Positions 24,730-33,484 of a DNA stretch of 37,639 nt are shown here, one piece after another. The DNA is from a virus (Duplodnaviria; Heunggongvirae; Uroviricota; Caudoviricetes): the IMG/VR virus record IMGVR_UViG_2585427795_000009, positions 1-37,639 of that record; one strand, given 5' to 3'. The translations under genes and the position numbers were made by a program. Below the pieces are notes generated by a model that saw only the letters and a program-made list of their open reading frames with translations, was not told the DNA's origin and did not search any database. The first letter of the stretch is position 1. The number at the start of each line of letters is the position of its first letter.

Positions 24730-26271
24730 ATGCCAACAGTTCCAATTTCTATGAGAAAACTTAAAGAAATTCTTAGGCTTAAATACGGTGTTGGACTCAG
24801 CCATCGACAAATTGGTCGTAGTCTTGCAATCTCCCCTTCCGTTGTATCCAGATATGCTAATCGGGCGGCTCAACTTGGCATAAAGCAGTGGCCCTTACCT
24901 ACAGGATGGGATGATACAAAACTAAAACATGCGTTCCTTCAGACCCAGGTTAAGATGAAGAAGCACTCTCTGCCTGACTGGGCTACAGTACACCGGGAAC
25001 TGCGTAATAAATGCGTGACGCTGCAGCTACTCTGGGAAGAATACTGTGAGCGTAATCCAGGCGGTTTTTACAGCTATAACCATTACTGCCGGATGTACCG
25101 TGAATGGCTCAAAACCACTTCACCATCAATGCGTCAGGTACATAAAGCTGGCGAAAAACTTTTCGTTGATTACTGTGGACCTACCGTTGGCGTTACCGAC
25201 CCTGAGACCGGAGAAATAAGAACTGCTCAGGTCATCGTAGCTGTTCTCGGGGCATCAAGTTACACATGGGCAGAGGCCACCTGGTCTCAGCAGCTTGAAG
25301 ACTGGGTGATGAGTCATGTTCGCTGCTTCCAGTGGTTGGGTGGCGTTCCTGAACTTGTTGTTCCGGACAATCTGAAAAGCGCCACATCCAGGGCATGTAA
25401 GTATGATCCTGACGTTAACCCTACCTACCAGCAGATGCTTGAGCATTATAATGTCGCAGTTTTGCCTGCGCGGCCACGTAAACCGAAAGATAAAGCCAAA
25501 GCTGAAGTTGGCGTTCAGGTTGTTGAACGCTGGATCATGGCCCGAATCAGGCATGAGATCTTCTACAGCCTTGCATCGCTTAATCAGCGCATTCGGGAGT
25601 TGCTGGAAAGACTGAATAACAAAATAATGCAGAAGTTGGGTTATTCACGTGCAGAACTCTTCATCCAGCTTGATAAACCCGCACTGAAGCCTCTTCCTGA
25701 AGCCAGTTACAGTTACACCCTGGTGAAGAAAGTCAGAGTTCATGCCGATTACCACGTGGAAATCGACAAACATTACTACTCGGTTCCATGTTCGCTGTTA
25801 GGCCAGCAACTGGAAGCATGGATCTCCGGAGAACTGGTAAGACTCTTCAATCAGGGGCAGGAGGTTGCTGTGCACCCGCGCAAGCGTACTTATGGCTACA
25901 GTACCCGCAACGAGCACATGCCTGAAGCTCATCGACAGCATGCCACCTGGACGCCAGAGCGTCTTCTGGAATGGGCGGGGCACATAGGCAGTGAAACTCA
26001 TAGTTATGTGCTTCATATACTGAACTCTCGTCCACATCCGGAACAAAGCTATCGCTTCTGCCTTGGACTCCTGAACCTTCATAAAAAATACAGTAAAGCC
26101 AGACTTAATGCAGCATGTGCAAGAGCTCTGAAAACAAAGGTATGGCGTCTGTCAGGTATTAAATCGATCCTGGAAAAAGGTCTGGATAAACAACCTGTTC
26201 AGGATCCAAAACCAGATCTGTTATCCACGATGGAACACGAAAACGTACGCGGCAGTGAGTATTACCACTGA
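24730..26271 (+). CDS. istA: IS21-family transposase IstA
   Basis: 513 aa; N-terminal HTH (LSHRQIGRSLAISPSVVSRY), DDE-type core, SD AAAGGA upstream. Confidence 0.9.
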   Translation: MPTVPISMRKLKEILRLKYGVGLSHRQIGRSLAISPSVVSRYANRAAQLGIKQWPLPTGWDDTKLKHAFLQTQVKMKKHSLPDWATVHRELRNKCVTLQLLWEEYCERNPGGFYSYNHYCRMYREWLKTTSPSMRQVHKAGEKLFVDYCGPTVGVTDPETGEIRTAQVIVAVLGASSYTWAEATWSQQLEDWVMSHVRCFQWLGGVPELVVPDNLKSATSRACKYDPDVNPTYQQMLEHYNVAVLPARPRKPKDKAKAEVGVQVVERWIMARIRHEIFYSLASLNQRIRELLERLNNKIMQKLGYSRAELFIQLDKPALKPLPEASYSYTLVKKVRVHADYHVEIDKHYYSVPCSLLGQQLEAWISGELVRLFNQGQEVAVHPRKRTYGYSTRNEHMPEAHRQHATWTPERLLEWAGHIGSETHSYVLHILNSRPHPEQSYRFCLGLLNLHKKYSKARLNAACARALKTKVWRLSGIKSILEKGLDKQPVQDPKPDLLSTMEHENVRGSEYYH

Positions 26272-26282
26272 TACGGGATCCA

Positions 26283-27032
26283 ATGATGAATCATCTTTAC
26301 GAACAACTGACCGCACTTAAACTCACCGGCTTCCGTGATGCGCTTAAAAAGCAACTTGCTCAGCCGGGCACATACCAGGAGCTGGGCTTCGAAGAACGCC
26401 TGTCATTACTGACAGCAGAAGAACTAACCTGCCGTGAAAACAGGAAGGCAGAGCGTCTGATCAAACATGCACGGTTCAGACTTAATGCTGAGTTATCAAA
26501 GCTGGATTATCGTAACAATAGAGGGCTGGACAGGGCCCTCATCCGTTCACTCAGTCAGGGAAACTGGTTAACCCTGAAACAAAATATTTTACTGACCGGG
26601 GCCACCGGCAGCGGTAAAACGTTCCTGGCATGTGCACTTGGTCATAATGCCTGCCGACAGGGATACAAGGTCTACTATTATCGCCTTAAAGCGCTGATGG
26701 AACAGTGCTATCAGGGGCATGCTGATGGAAGATACAGCAAACTTTTGACCAGGCTGAATAATAGCGATCTGCTGCTTCTGGATGACTGGGGGCTGGAACC
26801 TCTCTCATCAGAACAGCGTAGCGACCTGCTGGAAATAGTGGATCTGATGTACCAACGAGGCTCAATCATCGTAGTGAGCCAGTTGCCGGTGGAAAACTGG
26901 TACAAAATGATCGGAGACTCCACACATGCGGATGCCATCCTAGATCGACTGGTTCATGGCAGTATCAAGATCGAACTTAAAGGAGAATCAATGCGGAAAA
27001 TACAATCTCCGTTGACCGAAGGAGATCAGTGA
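26283..27032 (+). CDS. istB: IS21-family ATP-binding helper IstB
   Basis: 249 aa; Walker A (LLTGATGSGKTF) and Walker B (LLLLDDWG); AAA+ IstB pattern. Confidence 0.9.
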   Translation: MMNHLYEQLTALKLTGFRDALKKQLAQPGTYQELGFEERLSLLTAEELTCRENRKAERLIKHARFRLNAELSKLDYRNNRGLDRALIRSLSQGNWLTLKQNILLTGATGSGKTFLACALGHNACRQGYKVYYYRLKALMEQCYQGHADGRYSKLLTRLNNSDLLLLDDWGLEPLSSEQRSDLLEIVDLMYQRGSIIVVSQLPVENWYKMIGDSTHADAILDRLVHGSIKIELKGESMRKIQSPLTEGDQ

Positions 27033-27118
27033 AGGTAATTTAAAAACGGTTCTGTGAAAGTGACACGAACCGATCTCCATCGATGTTACTCACCGATCTC
27101 CTTCACGGTAATACGCAA

Positions 27119-27826
27119 CTATATATACTTCCTTTTTACTCTACTTAATTCTATCACTGATGAGGAGTGACAAAATGACAAATTAATAGTATCGATATAA
27201 TCCAAAATTTGACTCTCAACCTCAATAAAAATATTTTTGGGCCCATTACTAATCGATATACCGATTTCATCCAAAACAGCCATCATTTTTCTCTGATGAG
27301 TTTTATATTTATAGTCTTTATTTTCCTCTGTAATATGTGCATTGGCTTCCTCAATAACACATTTGATTCTAGATATTATTTCTAGATAATCTCTCGAAAC
27401 AGATATATCACCGCCTTGCGCTTCAGGGAACATAACCCTATACCATCTAAAAAAATTAACTTTCTCTGGATAGATGCTACTTCTTTTAGTTAACTCAGCA
27501 CTTGCAAATTCTCTAAACATCGTCAGATGACTAGTGTAATTACTATTATTATTATTTTTAACTCCAGCGTTATATGTCATCAAAGCAATCATAACACCAA
27601 AAACGGTAACAAAAGTTGTTATAAGCCATCCAAACGCCTGAAAATACATTACTATACCAGATGTTTTTTCCGCAAAAAATTTTAAGCACTGGCTATCGAA
27701 GCATATATCACGCTCATATAGCTTTTCATTCTGAATAGTTTCAAAAAGAGAAATTAGCGAAAAAATCAAAAAAAGAGCTGACGACACACCGACAATATAT
27801 TTGAGAAGTCTAATATTTGCATTCAT
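27119..27826 (-). CDS. 2-TM membrane protein, candidate effector translationally coupled to the upstream reverse transcriptase
   Basis: 235 aa; two N-terminal TM helices (LLKYIVGVSSALFLIFSLISLF and GIVMYFQAFGWLITTFVTVFGVMIALM) then a roughly 150-aa soluble domain; its ATG overlaps the RT stop (ATGA); AT-rich. Confidence 0.7.
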   Translation of the reverse strand: MNANIRLLKYIVGVSSALFLIFSLISLFETIQNEKLYERDICFDSQCLKFFAEKTSGIVMYFQAFGWLITTFVTVFGVMIALMTYNAGVKNNNNSNYTSHLTMFREFASAELTKRSSIYPEKVNFFRWYRVMFPEAQGGDISVSRDYLEIISRIKCVIEEANAHITEENKDYKYKTHQRKMMAVLDEIGISISNGPKNIFIEVESQILDYIDTINLSFCHSSSVIELSRVKRKYI

Positions 27827-29049
27827 AATGGTTTTAAAGATGCCAATCTAGATTTAAAACACTCCAGTTTTTCTTTAAATGATTCAGAGCGAGTAAGAAT
27901 AATCATCTTATATCTCGTCAAATCATATTTTCTTTTATACCAATGTTTATTTTGATTACCTTTCGAATACGACAACTCTAAACTTTTTATAGCTGCATCA
28001 ATCACAGCAACATCTCTTTTAGATGGCATCGGTTTTATTGCCTGCAACTGTTTCTTGAATGATTCATATTTTTCATGCCCAACACGGCCAAGCTTATTCA
28101 CTCTCCCCATACATCTATTGAATTCTTTTCTGTATGCAACACTTGTTTTTGTGTTATTTTTTGCCGCCAGTAATTTCAAATTATGTATAGATGCCCTGAT
28201 TCTTTTGACTTCATCGGATGGTAGTCGAGGTGAGTCATAGTCAACTCTTAAACCATGTACTTTTATAGGTTCAGATGAACAGTGAAATATTTTAGTTTTG
28301 TGCTTATTTATCGGCAAGTCATGCTCAGAAAGCATCCTCTCTATATGGCTTTGCATTTGAGAAAAATCATAATTACTTATTTTAGATGACACGGTAATAT
28401 CATCTACCAAACGCGTATAAACAAGTCCTTTCCTCTGCGCACGTCTTACCACATCCCCTTCAACAGCGAATAAACACAAAGTTGCTATATAGCTTGATGT
28501 TAAGGCCCCCTGTACGACAAAATCATCCTTAGTACATATATCCACCAAGTATTCAAGAGCCTCATCCTTAATATGCAATATCTCCTCAAACACGCTCCTA
28601 ACCAGATCTCTATGGATATTATCGAAAAAATTACTTATATCCACCTTGAGAACTGTTTTTGCTCCACAATGAGCCTTTGCACATGAAACATAGTCACGTT
28701 TGACATTAGAATTTAAAACATCATTTTTACTGGGAACTGAACCAAACAAAAATGAAGGAAAAACAACCAATTCCTTAAAGATACGTTTATTAATTCTACT
28801 CTGTAATAATCTCATTTTAGGATGCAGGGAGTAGACAATCCGTTTGCTTCCGTCAATTTTGGGAATTTCTTTTAGAGTATATTTCTCATCTAATGGTAAT
28901 TCTGCAATAGCTTTAAGCTCTTCAACAGAAATCGATAAAGCCTTTGACAACTTTTCAAGTGTTGTGATAGGAGCATTGGATTTGCTGTATGGTTTAAATT
29001 TATCCATAAACATACCATTCAAATTCAAAGTTACGTACGGTCTTCCCAT
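27823..29049 (-). CDS. Retron-type reverse transcriptase (start uncertain: ATG at 29049, 29013 or 29007)
   Basis: RT motifs read directly: KRIVYSLHPKMRLLQSRI (motif 1-2), CAKAH-x5-VLKVDISNFFDNI (NAxxH-like plus motif A), QGALTSSYIATL (motif B), YTRLVDDITVS (motif C, YxDD), LPINKHKTKIF (motif E), IKVHGL in the position of the retron VTG motif; about 130-aa C-terminal extension. Confidence 0.82.
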   Translation of the reverse strand: MGRPYVTLNLNGMFMDKFKPYSKSNAPITTLEKLSKALSISVEELKAIAELPLDEKYTLKEIPKIDGSKRIVYSLHPKMRLLQSRINKRIFKELVVFPSFLFGSVPSKNDVLNSNVKRDYVSCAKAHCGAKTVLKVDISNFFDNIHRDLVRSVFEEILHIKDEALEYLVDICTKDDFVVQGALTSSYIATLCLFAVEGDVVRRAQRKGLVYTRLVDDITVSSKISNYDFSQMQSHIERMLSEHDLPINKHKTKIFHCSSEPIKVHGLRVDYDSPRLPSDEVKRIRASIHNLKLLAAKNNTKTSVAYRKEFNRCMGRVNKLGRVGHEKYESFKKQLQAIKPMPSKRDVAVIDAAIKSLELSYSKGNQNKHWYKRKYDLTRYKMIILTRSESFKEKLECFKSRLASLKPL

Positions 29050-29265
29050 ACTCAAGGGTGGAACAGCAGAGATGCTTACATCAACAATTGTCAGCAACAG
29101 CCTCTGCTATCTTTCGACCGTACGTAATGTCGTCGGCTACGGCACCATCGTAGTTGACGACGGTGGGGCCTCGCTGATAGGTCCATAGTGGACGCTTTTT
29201 TGTAAAAGCAAAAACTGACAATTTAATGTTGTTGACTGCCGCATACCAAGCGAATCGCTGGTGCG
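29050..29265 (-). ncRNA. Candidate structured leader or ncRNA upstream of the retron-type RT (possible msr-msd-like element)
   Basis: Non-coding leader with several perfect hairpins (GTCCA-TAG-TGGAC 29181..29193; GCTTTT-N4-AAAAGC 29194..29209; CACCATCG-N7-CGACGGTG 29143..29165) and two interleaved long-range inverted repeats (29031..29040 with 29118..29127, 10 bp; 29081..29094 with 29215..29236). Sequence-only inference. Confidence 0.3.
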
Positions 29266-29271
29266 CTAAGA

Positions 29272-29300
29272 ATAATGCAACAAAAAAATAAGAATTTCAA
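29272..29300 (-). promoter_or_regulatory. Putative sigma-70 promoter for the RT/2-TM operon
   Basis: On the minus strand: TTGAAA (-35), 17-nt spacer, CATTAT (-10); about 215-250 nt upstream of the RT start. Confidence 0.3.
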
Positions 29301-29338
29301 CCGGGTAACTGCAAGCCAGCGACATCGTTTAGCGCGCA

Positions 29339-29357
29339 GTGCTTTCCCCGCCTCGCC
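29339..29357. other. cos site (19-nt cohesive-end sequence of P2/P4 type)
   Basis: Minus-strand sequence GGCGAGGCGGGGAAAGCAC matches the P2 cohesive end as I recall it; flanked at 29357..29380 by hairpin CCGCCC-N8-GGGCGG plus TTTT. Confidence 0.75.
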
Positions 29358-29546
29358 CGCCCGCTTAATGGGGCGGTTTTAATGCACTTGCATTATGTCC
29401 CGCTCCTCAGTGCTGCGCTCCATCCTGATTACAAAAACCGTTATCAAAAACACATGCAAATAGACGCAGTCAAATGCACTACCGCCTCTCGCAATACCTT
29501 CAATTTCATGATAAAAAACATCATCCCTAACAAGAGCATTATCCTC

Positions 29547-31094
29547 ATGAAAAAAGTATATGAACTAACCAGTGAAGAAGCACTGTCATATTTTCTTCGC
29601 CATGACTCCTACACAACCTTAGAATTACCGGCTTATATTAATTTCACCACATTATTAAATGATATTAATTCATCTATCCATAACAAAAAAATTAAAATTG
29701 AACCAACCGCCAAGGAGCTGATGGGTAAAGATATCAATTATGAGGTGCTTGTCAGTAAAGATGGTCTATATAGCTGGCGTAGGATAACACTTATCAATCC
29801 CCTTTATTATGTCTACTTCTGTAGAAAAATCACAGCACCAACAACCTGGGAAATCATAACAGAAAAATTCAAATCTTTTGAATCAAACGACCTTTTTACA
29901 TGTTCAAGCATCCCCGTCAGAAAAGACAACTCGTCAAACATTGCTGCGTCTGTAATGAATTGGTGGGAAGATTTTGAACAAAAAAGCCTTGCCCTTGCTC
30001 TTGAATACGAATTCATGTTCAGCACTGACATCTCAAACTTCTACCCATCAATATATACTCATAGTTTTGAATGGGTATTCATATCAAAAGAAGATGCAAA
30101 GAAGAAAAAAAACAAAAATAACCCAGGGGGATTAATTGACAGCCACATTCAAATGATGATGAACAACCAGACAAATGGTATTCCACTCGGCAGCACATTG
30201 ATGGATACATTTGCTGAGCTTATCTTGGGTCAAATCGATATAGAATTAAGAAAAAAAACTAACGAACTCAAAATAATAAACTACAAGGTAGTACGCTACC
30301 GTGATGATTACCGGATCTTCTCTAATAGCAAAGATGATTTAGACATAATATCAAAATGTTTAGTCAATGTGTTGGGCGATTTTGGTTTAGATCTAAACTC
30401 AAAAAAAACTGAACTATATGAAGACATCATACTTCATTCGTTGAAACAAGCCAAAAAAGACTACATCAAAGAAAAAAGACATAAGTCACTCCAGAAAATG
30501 CTCTATTCAATATATTTATTTTCACTTAAACATCCAAACTCGAAAACAACCGTTAGATATCTAAATGATTTTCTTAGGGATTTATTTAAGCGAAAGTCAA
30601 TTAAAGATAACGGCCAACAGGTTGATGCTATGCTTGGTATTATTTCAAGCATCATGGCAAAAAACCCTACAACGTACCCAGTAGGAACGGCAATTTTCTC
30701 AAAACTCCTCAGTTTTCTTTATGGTGATGACACCCAAAAAAAATTAACAAAACTAGAACAGCTCCATAAAAAACTGGATAAACAACCCAATACAGAAATG
30801 CTTGACATATGGTTTCAGCGAACTCAAGCAAAAATAAACCTAGAGTGGAATAAATCTTATAAGTCAGCTCTATGCGTCCGTATAAATGATGAACTCACAA
30901 AAGAGAAAACATTTTCTGTAAATAATTTATGGAATATTGACTGGATCCAAGGAAAAGAAACGAGCCCCAATAAAGCCAAGATATTATCCTTGCTAAGAAA
31001 AACAAAAATCGTTGACACAGATAAATTTGATAAAATGGATGACAATATAACACCTGAAGAAGTTAATCTATTCTTTAAAGAGCACAGCAATTAA
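29547..31094 (+). CDS. AbiK/Abi-P2-like (UG/Abi class) reverse transcriptase in the old/tin position (start uncertain; longest ATG is at 29382)
   Basis: Motifs STDISNFYPSIYTHS (compare AbiK LDLSNFYHTLYTHS), GIPLGSTLMDTFAELIL (motif B), VVRYRDDYRIF (motif C), GLDLNSKKTEL (motif E), then a roughly 250-aa helical C-terminal domain; AT-rich; the 29382..29546 extension overlaps the cos-flanking region and is probably not coding. Confidence 0.8.
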   Translation: MKKVYELTSEEALSYFLRHDSYTTLELPAYINFTTLLNDINSSIHNKKIKIEPTAKELMGKDINYEVLVSKDGLYSWRRITLINPLYYVYFCRKITAPTTWEIITEKFKSFESNDLFTCSSIPVRKDNSSNIAASVMNWWEDFEQKSLALALEYEFMFSTDISNFYPSIYTHSFEWVFISKEDAKKKKNKNNPGGLIDSHIQMMMNNQTNGIPLGSTLMDTFAELILGQIDIELRKKTNELKIINYKVVRYRDDYRIFSNSKDDLDIISKCLVNVLGDFGLDLNSKKTELYEDIILHSLKQAKKDYIKEKRHKSLQKMLYSIYLFSLKHPNSKTTVRYLNDFLRDLFKRKSIKDNGQQVDAMLGIISSIMAKNPTTYPVGTAIFSKLLSFLYGDDTQKKLTKLEQLHKKLDKQPNTEMLDIWFQRTQAKINLEWNKSYKSALCVRINDELTKEKTFSVNNLWNIDWIQGKETSPNKAKILSLLRKTKIVDTDKFDKMDDNITPEEVNLFFKEHSN

Positions 31095-31100
31095 TATCCC

Positions 31101-31134
31101 AAAGCCATGTTAGTAACATAACATGGCTTTTTTT
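31101..31134. terminator. Bidirectional rho-independent terminator between the convergent Abi-like RT and A
   Basis: Perfect 12-bp stem (AAAGCCATGTTA / TAACATGGCTTT) with 6-nt loop, followed by TTTT on the plus strand. Confidence 0.6.
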
Positions 31135-31198
31135 AAATCACTCATTATCAGTTATCAAGAACGAACATAACATTCTATTCCGAGGAGTTAAATTATCA

Positions 31199-33484
31199 TT
31201 AGCTCCACTTAATATCCGTTATATCCTCCAGCCACTCCTCATCTACAAGATAGGTGAATTTTTTCCCGTCATAATTTACGGTTGCTCCACGTGCCAGCGC
31301 CTCAAGCTCCCATCGCTGCGGCCTGATACCGTTCTGAGCGAGGTCAACGCGGATACGGGTAATTTGCATTCGTTCTGACCGGGTCAGTCTGGCCGATGGC
31401 GCTATTTCATGTGGTTTTAACGGGCTTCCGTTTCTCTGCTGACGACCAGTCGTTCTCAGGCCGTGTTTTAATGCTCCCCTGAGCGCCTTCACGACCTCCG
31501 GGTCATTCCATTCGATAACACCGTCATCAACCAGATTAAGCACTGCTGCGGCGTGCTCAGAAGGTGTGGGAGCTGGTAACGAAGCATCACCACTGGTGAG
31601 CTTTCCACAGTTATTGACAGGACTCCGAGGCGCGGCGATGCCGCTTTTTAAAGTCAAAGGCTCAACGACCGGAACTTTCGGCACAATGCGCCAGTCCGTC
31701 GTTCTGGTGATATGAATATGACGCGCGCCGAGATGCGGCGCGTAAATGCCGACCACTCTCTCGACTTCTTCCTCGTATTCGTTGACGTCATCCGACGGAC
31801 TACGGGCAACCCTGACAATCTGACTATCGCGCGGGACATTTGCCCCGCCCTGCGCGCTGATATACAGCGCAAAATCACCACTGTCTGCGGCGGCGCGTGC
31901 AGCCTCGACGCGCTCGTCAAACTCATCAGCAATGCTGACGCCGCGCGGCAATTTGCGTAGTTCACGGTAAGCCCCCATTGTCGGCAGACCAACCGTTTTA
32001 AATTGCGGGATGCGCCACGTTGACGCCCATGCGGTAACAGCCGCGGCAGTGTCTTTCAGCGGTCTGCCGGTATCATTATCGAGCTGACCATCCAGTGCAT
32101 ATCCGTCGATATTTTTTGAGATGTACTTCGCGATATACCCCGCAGCACCGCCCCGGTTAAGGTGTTTCGCCTGAAAACGGTTTCGCGCGGCTCCTCTTTC
32201 GTCGCCATCCTCTTTGAGCGCGTAGCGACGCATGATTTCAATAATCTGGTTACGCTGGCGTGGATTACAAAAAAGCATCATATGCCAGTGCGGCGTTCCG
32301 TCGTGGTGTGGCTCGACGACACGCAAACCGTAGACCTGTAAATCATTATCCTTGAATGCCGTGCGCATCAGGCTCCAGATGCGGCAGAGATAACGCTGCG
32401 CATCCTTTGGATTAAATGCCTCATCGTTCCAGCCGTGATTAAGCTGAACGGTTTTACTTTCGCCTTTTCTGACCTGACGAGTCGGGTGATACTTTGACGG
32501 CGCAGTCAGCGTGATAAACATCCCCACATCACCCTCTGCGGCGGCGTAACGCTCAATACCGGCAATGGTGTTCATCAGCTCCATCCGGCGAATTTCAGGA
32601 TTAGAAATACTGCCCATCACCTTACTGATAAGGTCGATGCGCTCGCCGGTTTCCCTGTTTTCAAGGTCACACGATTTAAGAAATTCCAGATTTGCCTGGC
32701 GGCGCGCACGCACATCACGAATGGCGTGTTTACTGGCATAAGGAGAACGGTCTTTATTGACCTCCCCGACAGCTATCAGTAACGCTTCATGCCAGCGCAT
32801 ACGCTGGCCTTTAAGCTGATGAGTCCACCACTCATCGTTAAACAGACGGGCAATGGCAGAATATGCCTGCCTCGTGGTTATCTGTCCTTTACGGTATTTT
32901 TTCCAGTAGAGCGGGGAAATATTGAAAGCTCGTGCAGCGCCAGCAACATGACCATACAGGTGAGCCTGAGCCTCATCCGTAAACAGTGATTCTTTTTCGC
33001 CATGCGCATCCACCCAGGCATCGCTGAGTTCCTCATACATCATGAAAAGCTGCGATGAGATACGGGCAGCAAACTTTTTCAGCTCCTTGTCATTCATTCC
33101 CGGCAGGCGCGCATAGTGGTCACGCTCTGCCAGAAACAGCAACGACGCGTCGGTGTTCATTTCATGGCGCTGATTCACACGCTCAATGCGCGGCCATAAA
33201 CGACGCTGAAAAGTGGATGTGAGGAAATAAAACCCGTGTACCGGGCTTTTATTGCGCCGGATGTAGTCATAGCGTGAAGTAAACAGCGAGCGCAAAAAGT
33301 AAGGCAGGCGGTTAATCGTGGATAAAACACCTTGCACCTGACGCATCTCGTCACGTGTAAGGGGTCTTTCGCGCCCGACGGCCTCGCGTGGCGCGTTCCA
33401 TGCATAAGCACCGGTAAACGTCTCACCGGTGCCTGCGGCAAATGCTGACGGAGGGACAAAATGCACGGAGGCTTTAACGGCCAT
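31199..33484 (-). CDS. A: Replication initiation protein gpA (rolling-circle nickase)
   Basis: 761 aa from ATG 33484 (MAVKASVHFVPP...); the ORF track start at 33526 is a TTG extension; size and synteny match P2 A. Confidence 0.9.
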   Translation of the reverse strand: MAVKASVHFVPPSAFAAGTGETFTGAYAWNAPREAVGRERPLTRDEMRQVQGVLSTINRLPYFLRSLFTSRYDYIRRNKSPVHGFYFLTSTFQRRLWPRIERVNQRHEMNTDASLLFLAERDHYARLPGMNDKELKKFAARISSQLFMMYEELSDAWVDAHGEKESLFTDEAQAHLYGHVAGAARAFNISPLYWKKYRKGQITTRQAYSAIARLFNDEWWTHQLKGQRMRWHEALLIAVGEVNKDRSPYASKHAIRDVRARRQANLEFLKSCDLENRETGERIDLISKVMGSISNPEIRRMELMNTIAGIERYAAAEGDVGMFITLTAPSKYHPTRQVRKGESKTVQLNHGWNDEAFNPKDAQRYLCRIWSLMRTAFKDNDLQVYGLRVVEPHHDGTPHWHMMLFCNPRQRNQIIEIMRRYALKEDGDERGAARNRFQAKHLNRGGAAGYIAKYISKNIDGYALDGQLDNDTGRPLKDTAAAVTAWASTWRIPQFKTVGLPTMGAYRELRKLPRGVSIADEFDERVEAARAAADSGDFALYISAQGGANVPRDSQIVRVARSPSDDVNEYEEEVERVVGIYAPHLGARHIHITRTTDWRIVPKVPVVEPLTLKSGIAAPRSPVNNCGKLTSGDASLPAPTPSEHAAAVLNLVDDGVIEWNDPEVVKALRGALKHGLRTTGRQQRNGSPLKPHEIAPSARLTRSERMQITRIRVDLAQNGIRPQRWELEALARGATVNYDGKKFTYLVDEEWLEDITDIKWS

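Follow-up and report, generated by a model that had tools for sequence, protein, structure and literature searches.

The locus and its genes

The window analysed here is the whole stretch of 37,639 nt of a caudoviral record (IMGVR_UViG_2585427795_000009), and all coordinates below are positions in it. On its minus strand, in a part of a P2-like prophage that is flanked by replication gene A and by the portal gene, lie a structured leader, a reverse transcriptase (RT) gene and an effector gene (Table 1). The RT (29007..27823) matches the type IV retron RT profile RT_IV at 5.4e-177 in a PADLOC profile search, with RT_V as the second-best profile (3.7e-63), and it contains an RVT_1 domain according to Pfam. 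The effector matches the PADLOC profile 2TM_IV at 4.1e-85, and its gene overlaps that of the RT by 4 nt at the stop codon (27826-27823). This position fits the type IV layout, in which a gene for a protein with two transmembrane (TM) helices lies just downstream of the RT gene or overlaps it (Mestre 2020). On the opposite strand the divergent neighbour encodes the AbiP2 RT, identified by its profile at 2.1e-161. The window's copy carries an IS21 insertion close behind the effector gene.

On the whole, relatives of the RT number in the hundreds, and in six closer loci the gene after the RT is called an Ec48-type effector. A block of 2.2 kb carrying the retron recurs with 99% identity or more in 57 complete E. 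coli genomes. In these the RefSeq name of the effector is 'retron Ec48 family effector membrane protein', and the block is also found in the P2-like phage pro147. The RT has VHG and CAKAH in place of the motifs VTG and NAXXH, in agreement with the peculiarities reported for RT-Eco6. Its catalytic DD stands at residues 202/203, or at 216/217 if counted from the ATG at 29049, and the latter numbering agrees with the catalytic mutant D216A/D217A of Millman et al. Its best match in the PDB is the Ec86 RT, to which it has low identity (E = 6e-16); the search brought up no type IV RT among the solved structures. Taken together with the ncRNA and RT-DNA matches given below, the RT_IV and 2TM_IV profiles, the RefSeq naming and the numbering and motifs of the RT make it very probable that the leader, which lies in a P2-like prophage, is the msr-msd ncRNA of the type IV retron Ec48 (Retron-Eco6). 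The original prediction of a possible retron msr-msd RNA in front of the RT is thereby borne out. The element, its ncRNA and its msDNA are already known and published, and Ec48 is an experimentally characterised anti-phage retron.

Table 1. Positions of the genes, promoter elements and RNA elements of the retron locus in the window.
Feature	Position	Strand	Basis
2TM effector, 235 aa	27119..27826	-	PADLOC 2TM_IV; RefSeq name
Retron Ec48 reverse transcriptase, 394 aa	27823..29007	-	PADLOC RT_IV; Pfam RVT_1
-35 hexamer TTGAAA	29295..29300	-	consensus scan
-10 hexamer CATTAT, 17-nt spacer to -35	29272..29277	-	consensus scan
Presumed priming (branching) G in CTTAGCG	29266	-	TAGC rule
Whole predicted conserved structured ncRNA, ~245 nt (msr, msd, 3' domain)	~29022..29266	-	38-locus alignment; covariation; RNAalifold
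Hairpin H1, CCAGCG-AUU-CGCUUGG, one bulge	29246..29261	-	paired block; RNAalifold
S2 5' strand (S2c 29244-29241, S2a 29236-29232, S2b 29221-29215)	29215..29244	-	covariation; duplex energy
msr hairpin H3, GCUUUU-ACAA-AAAAGC	29194..29209	-	covariation
msr hairpin H4, GUCCA-CUA-UGGAC	29181..29193	-	pairing across homologues
msd, template of 48-nt msDNA	29120..29167	-	census RT-DNA mapping; reported length
S1 5' arm UUACGUACGGUC, pairs with 29042-29031	29116..29127	-	covariation; RNAalifold
S3 5' arm, pairs with 29071-29062	29102..29111	-	covariation; RNAalifold
S2 3' strand	29072..29094	-	covariation
S3 3' arm	29062..29071	-	covariation; RNAalifold
Hairpin H5, CCC-UUGAGUAU-GGG, carries AUG	29045..29058	-	covariation
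S1 3' arm GACCGUACGUAA, followed by a moderately U-rich tract	29031..29042	-	repeat search; covariation; RNAalifold

The published ncRNA and the msDNA

For comparison we used the supplement of a retron census (PMC10849725), in which the entry 'Retron Terminal 488 = Retron-Eco6 (Ec48)' represents this retron. Its ncRNA of 186 nt maps to 29286..29101 with no substitution and with three single-base indels in the machine-read text, which are plausibly errors of text extraction. The RT-DNA of the census begins with GTACGTAATGTCG..., the complement of the template from C29120. Read on the plus strand, the msDNA is GTACGTAATG...GGTGGG, starting at 29120, and the msd template is about 29167..29120 for an msDNA of 48 nt. 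That length is the one reported; the sequenced product is 3 nt shorter at its 3' end (45 nt) and ends at 29164 (Palka 2022). The listing of the RT-DNA in the census extends to 29279; it was considered for the branch position and left out of account. Within the msd the window can form internal stems in either of two registers, 29161-29149 with 29141-29129 or 29165-29157 with 29151-29143, the latter being the minus-strand hairpin CACCGTCGT/ACGATGGTG at 29165-29143 with one G.U pair. Neither register covaries convincingly in the 38-locus alignment described below, probably owing to length variation of the msd. The original paper on msDNA-Ec48 is that of Mao et al. 1997 (J Bacteriol 179:7865).

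Strings of the leader sequence had no match in the main texts of the literature and were found only in the census supplement, and the available portions of Simon 2019, Palka 2022, Zhang 2025 and Kong 2021 contain no explicit branch position or a1/a2 for Ec48. A match to retron covariance models, which the original prediction had put forward as a check, was not obtained: no Rfam 15 family was placed on the leader at E up to 10 in a scan of 27000-31500. Retrons of other types underlie the msr model of Rfam.

A conserved fold upstream of type IV RTs

Below we report the structure of the leader as seen across its homologues. The set comprises 43 related loci taken from genome contigs, to which six closer loci were added from assemblies; the alignment used throughout holds 38 sequences of about 260 nt upstream of the RT, and it spans Enterobacterales, Pseudomonas, Marinobacter, Aeromonas, Burkholderiales and others. 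When all helices of the window are projected onto the 38 sequences, 77.9% of the cells are paired against 37-44% in slid controls, and 58 of the 72 pairs change on both sides. In more local terms, the block of helix H1 is paired in 86% of cells and its core of 5 bp in 98%, with the loop context GCG-NNN-CGC conserved. H3 is 96% paired with compensatory changes in five of six pairs, H4 is 95% paired, and H5 is 96.5% paired with covariation from CCC/GGG to CUC/GAG. The short hairpins claimed from the sequence alone are present on the minus strand, where H1, H3, H4 and the msd hairpin can be read directly from the sequence. As for the hairpins by which a retron leader is recognised, one to three in the msr and a stem-loop in the msd, H1, H3 and H4 are conserved and covarying, and the msd stem is present in the window and variable across the family.

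The long-range helices are preserved to a similar degree. S1 is 94% paired, with changes on both sides in 11 of 12 pairs, and S3 is paired at 75% in the register of the window and at 89% in that of the family. The composite helix S2 (29244-29215/29094-29072) is 82.6% paired against 30-44% in slid controls, and all 16 of its 16 pairs change on both sides. An all-against-all scan of the alignment columns recovers these helices and adds S2c (AUGC 29244-29241 with GCAU 29075-29072). RNAalifold independently predicts H1, H3, H4, S1, S3 and H5, with 34 of 38 pairs compensatory; pseudoknots cannot be drawn by this program. Both of the interleaved inverted repeats that had been noted in the leader are therefore conserved helices that covary across the 38 homologues. 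The shorter one is S1, real and covarying, only that it is a perfect repeat of 12 nt (29031-29042 with 29116-29127) instead of the 10 first counted; the longer one, described as 14 bp with a bulge, resolves into 29086-29094 with 29215-29223 and 29081-29087 with 29229-29235. Two candidates were not retained. A local hairpin in the single-sequence minimum free energy fold, 29240-29235 with 29222-29217, is paired in 55% and was dropped, and an extension of H1 by 29264-29262 with 29243-29241 was set aside since S2c covaries better.

These features exceed what chance would give, as seen from shuffling in addition to the covariation. When the 351-nt region was dinucleotide-shuffled 1000 times, a perfect inverted repeat of at least 12 nt arose in 6 cases, and the fold of the 266-nt leader has z = -3.66, with none of 200 shuffles as good. 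The duplex of S1 and S3 amounts to -31.4 kcal/mol and that of S2 to -19.4 kcal/mol, and for neither did any of 500 shuffled partners match it.

The S1/S3 hairpin holds the 3' strand of S2 in its apical loop, which makes the fold pseudoknotted, and S2c abuts S3 with no linker nucleotide. From the comparative evidence, S1 and S2 are real, selected helices, and together with S3 and H5 they are predicted to make a pseudoknotted RNA of about 245 nt (~29266..29022). A structured RNA is thus present where one had been proposed, though with other bounds, as it reaches from ~29266 to ~29022 and so 20-30 nt past the proposed lower limit of 29050. The conserved fold also reaches about 80 nt past the 3' boundary of the published ncRNA. 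A covariance model built on the 3' domain (29128-29026) has a single match at each type IV locus, always just in front of the RT, and this holds also for eight loci outside the building set; there was no match at the 36 loci whose RTs are of other types, nor at any other place in the window. On geometric reasoning, the linker 29101-29095, with its 7 nt, seems too short for S2b, S2a, S2c and S3 to be joined in one straight stack, which makes bending of the helices or alternation between conformers likely. The first eight templated bases lie inside S1. It follows that S1 must be opened for initiation, unless the S1/S3 helix takes the role of a1/a2.

Promoter, presumed priming guanosine and template start

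The minus-strand promoter of the original prediction is upheld by the homologues, which have sigma-70-like promoters at a conserved position, with spacings of 16-18 nt and at equal distance from H1. In 23 of 27 homologues the best -10 element ends 6-9 nt upstream of the conserved G-C before H1, and several promoters are near consensus (TTGACA-16-TAAAAT, TTGACA-16-TATTAT). The G-C dinucleotide, located 1-3 nt 5' of H1, is itself conserved among the homologues. The priming G of retrons is usually found within TAGC, and Ec48 is absent from the exceptions listed by Simon et al. 2019. On the msr side of the present leader the sole TAGC is at 29268-29265, and by this rule the priming G is presumed to be G29266. 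As judged from the conserved position of the promoter, the primary transcript probably starts at or beside this same nucleotide. With such a predicted start no a1 would be transcribed. A downstream candidate, G29038, which is opposite C29120 in S1, was rejected as priming G, being A or U in most homologues and unsuitable in geometry.

No pair of terminal inverted repeats a1/a2 bordering the priming G and the template start was found at this locus, and a duplex scan for an upstream partner of 29119-29095 gave no consistent site across the homologues. The remark in the original prediction that the spacing departs from a textbook a1/a2 layout proves apt, as the implied stem is neither conserved nor stabler than shuffles. 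Based on these results, we tentatively suggest that type IV retrons prime without a terminal a1/a2 stem: the priming G would be the first or second nucleotide of the transcript, the template start would be buried in the S1/S3/H5 hairpin 3' of the msd, and the loop of this hairpin would form a pseudoknot with the msr through S2, which joins G and template. We put this proposal at somewhat short of an even chance.

Alternative explanations

Two alternatives concern the nature of the leader as a whole and of its 3' end. In some DRT systems, too, the defence RT is immediately preceded by a structured ncRNA, and with a true Abi/UG-class RT, AbiP2, next door, the leader might be taken as the ncRNA of a DRT-type (UG/Abi) RT, for example as a template for concatemeric or homopolymeric cDNA. 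This is extremely improbable, for the RT matches retron profiles only, with no DRT profile among the top 25 matches, AbiP2 is divergently transcribed from the opposite strand, and a discrete RT-DNA of 45-48 nt is documented for the identical sequence. A coding role for 29049..29008, whether by extending the RT at its N-terminus or by forming a short upstream ORF from the invariant ATG, is also very improbable, if less so. This ATG (29049-29047) lies in the loop of H5; in E. coli an open frame joins it to the RT, it is used in some annotations with an RT of 408 aa as well as in the numbering of Millman et al., and it is kept in 38 of 38 homologues. However, such an open frame leads from it into the RT in only six of the 38; in the others stops occur 2-34 codons after it and the peptides are unrelated, and the conservation around it obeys the base-pairing rules of H5 and S1. 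Kept in every homologue yet usable in so few, the ATG in H5 is, on comparative grounds, an RNA element and not a start codon. The RT start is most likely 29007. The description of the region as non-coding in any sensible frame holds in this respect, except that some annotations do extend the RT into it.

The other two alternatives accept the retron and question how it is primed. Following the textbook layout, the transcript would start upstream of 29286, an a1 at about 29286-29267 would pair with an a2 at about 29118-29101, beside G29266 and C29120, and S1, S2 and S3 would be accessory or alternative. Such arms are implied by the census boundaries of Eco6 in analogy with Eco1, because census ncRNAs begin with a1 and finish with a2, as the Eco1 entry shows, and the Eco6 entry is 29286..29101. 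The two putative arms have similar lengths and stand exactly beside the G of TAGC and the template start, and in the close relative L082 the corresponding stretch, judged by eye, has a complementarity of 12 nt with one mismatch. Against this, the a1/a2 duplex amounts to -5.8 kcal/mol, which 67% of shuffled partners equal or better, and 56% of cells are paired against 36-48% in slid controls, with no convincing covariation. The a1 stretch moreover overlaps the -10 box and the spacer of the promoter that is position-conserved in 23 of 27 homologues, and the a2 stretch is paired instead with 29071-29039 with strong covariation, so that we find this layout decidedly unlikely. Less easily set aside, though still on the unlikely side, is the view that the 3' domain (S1, S3 and H5; 29127..29022) is no priming scaffold but a separate cis-regulatory or processing element at the junction of ncRNA and RT. 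Its possible roles are to act as a leaky terminator or attenuator, to stabilise the 3' end and so raise the ncRNA far above the RT mRNA in abundance, or to serve as an operator by which the RT controls its own translation. The end of the S1 3' arm lies 24 nt upstream of the RT start codon, and a moderately U-rich tract comes after it (mean 4.1 U in 8 nt). Retron ncRNA regions are reportedly strongly enriched over the downstream genes, and in the sister type VI retrons an RNA structure beside the msr-msd controls translation of the downstream ORF. However, the U tract after S1 is weak and a terminator scan did not flag the site, for which reasons S1 was rejected as an intrinsic terminator; the likely ribosome-binding region is outside the conserved helices; and the 3' domain is physically interlocked with the template, as eight templated bases lie in S1 and S2 links it to the msr.

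Proposed mechanism and comparison with known retrons

In the core mechanism, the RT, bound to the folded leader, primes from the 2'-OH of a guanosine and copies 29120 to 29167 into a single-stranded DNA of 45-48 nt, with RNase H1 setting the stop and removing the template. In this folded leader, the S1/S3/H5 hairpin may hold the template start, its apical loop pairing with the segment just 3' of H1 to form S2, and the pseudoknot scaffold, in place of a terminal a1/a2, would bring the 5' G next to C29120. The msDNA and the RT then hold the 2TM membrane effector silent, until phage inhibitors of RecBCD (lambda Gam, T7 gp5.9) release it and the infected cell dies. The core of this mechanism comes from published work on the identical sequence, to which the present analysis adds, as what we infer, G29266, the position of the 5' end and the ~245-nt scaffold. 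Ec48 protects E. coli against several phages and guards RecBCD; its defence requires the catalytic residues of the RT and the TM helices of the effector, and it is triggered by inhibition of RecBCD by lambda Gam or T7 gp5.9, upon which the infected cell dies (Millman et al. 2020). Gam alone triggers Eco6 (Zhang et al. 2025), and precise termination of the RT-DNA needs RNase H1 (Palka 2022).

The element is the same as Retron-Eco6 (Ec48) (Mao et al. 1997; Millman et al. 2020; Palka et al. 2022) in its ncRNA, RT motifs, effector and P2-like prophage context, and there is no difference at the level of the system; what the window's copy adds is the IS21 element. With Retron-Eco1 (Ec86) it shares a promoter-proximal msr with short hairpins, the heptamer CTTAGCG, an msd stem-loop, an RT immediately downstream and RNase H1-dependent termination. 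Unlike Eco1, in which a perfect terminal a1/a2 of 12 bp flanks the G and the template start, the Ec48 locus has no such stable or conserved stem; its G is at the predicted transcript start, and its template start is in a hairpin that is predicted to be pseudoknotted with the msr. The hybrid RNA of type VI belongs to a retron that shares RT clade 3 with Ec48. In Retron-Vpa2, as described in a preprint (Zhang et al. 2025), the msr-msd lies within a longer structured transcript, and distant inverted repeats past extra arms close the structure 'like a1/a2'. The type VI RNA encodes a toxic small protein and gives almost no msDNA until triggered, whereas Eco6 has abundant constitutive msDNA and a separate 2TM effector. 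Retron-Sen1 (Se72), of type V, is a sister type in clade 3, and its effector has a cold-shock domain, unlike the 2TM effector of Ec48.

Since Ec48/Eco6 is among the best-studied defence retrons, the discovery value of the present locus is small, and a non-canonical ncRNA architecture in type IV is a moderately interesting and testable side result. Retron engineering, however, relies on the right ncRNA boundaries, which gives a comparative fold of type IV its practical value. If the proposal of priming without a terminal stem is true, the 'minimal' Eco6 ncRNA in current use (29286..29101) misses about 80 nt of functional RNA, a possible reason for the poor results or failure of Eco6 and other type IV retrons in the census. 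There, an Eco6-based construct gave 0.2x the editing of Eco1, and no RT-DNA was obtained with an Acinetobacter ncRNA of type IV whose drawn extent began at the 5' strand of S2 and left out H1 (PMC10849725). Both outcomes fit incomplete ncRNA boundaries without proving them: the census Eco6 ncRNA lacks the 3' strands of S1, S2 and S3, yet the Eco6-based construct edits, and the boundaries of the construct may differ from those of the entry. The fold supported by covariation offers targets for mutagenesis, together with a covariance model for annotating loci that Rfam misses.

Conserved elements in the retron leader

Across all 38 aligned homologues, the loop of H5, the hairpin in the 3' domain (C-U...A-U-G; window 29045-29058, minus strand), is nearly invariant and exceeds every msr hairpin in conservation, and H5 could be a recognition site for the reverse transcriptase (RT). 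Conservation also extends to the unpaired linkers beside the 3' strand of S2, the long-range helix that links the msr to the apical loop of the S1/S3 hairpin (29095-29101 and 29076-29079, minus strand), where the conserved nucleotides are GGCWG, which follows S3, and, ahead of S2c, the A of GUAA/GAAU; on the 5' side, GCAG before S2a is likewise conserved. These nucleotides at the S2 junctions are candidate sites of tertiary interaction or of contact with protein. In the msd template, three of the four positions of a G-U-A-G motif (29137-29140, minus strand) show conservation of 90% or more, implying a conserved CTAC in the msDNA, while the sequence and the stems around it are variable.

An alternative pairing is possible in 91% of the sequences, in which CGCUU of the H1 3' strand (29248-29252) pairs with AAGCG at the junction of H3 and H4 (29193-29197), both on the minus strand. 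CGCUU can do so because AGCG, part of the 5' strand of H1, recurs at the end of H3. The pairing could reflect an alternative conformation or a mere repetition of sequence.

At a few more distant type IV-like loci from Pseudoalteromonas and Acinetobacter, with RT identity of 40-45% (L034, L036-L038 and L041), the covariance model of the 3' domain has no match, and their leaders appear to be organised differently.

Genomic neighbourhood of the retron

AbiP2 is transcribed divergently from the retron, so that two unrelated RT defence systems stand back to back in the hotspot of P2 that has gene A on one side and the portal gene on the other. In the longest ORF of AbiP2, the PADLOC profile is matched from residue 56 onward, and the protein that RefSeq gives for an identical locus has 515 aa. 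A GC-rich hairpin in the divergent intergenic region that separates AbiP2 from the retron promoter looks like a plus-strand terminator; no plus-strand gene lies upstream of it, and it may be a boundary marker between the two defence cassettes.

Features flanking the retron in the window
Feature	Position	Strand	Basis
GC-rich hairpin CCGCCC-GCTTAATG-GGGCGG, then TTTT	29357-29376	+	sequence
AbiP2, second defence RT	29382-31094 (likely start near 29547)	+	PADLOC 2.1e-161
IS21-family insertion sequence	24730-27032	+	IstA and IstB genes
IstA, rve and Mu-transposase C domains	24730-26271	+	domain matches
IstB	26283-27032	+	IstB_IS21 2.2e-67

A weak PADLOC match of IstB to the defence gene DrmD was rejected, as it reflects the common AAA ATPase fold. 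In other E. coli genomes the effector is followed directly by the P2 portal gene, whereas here the IS21-family element comes directly after the stop codon of the 2TM effector.
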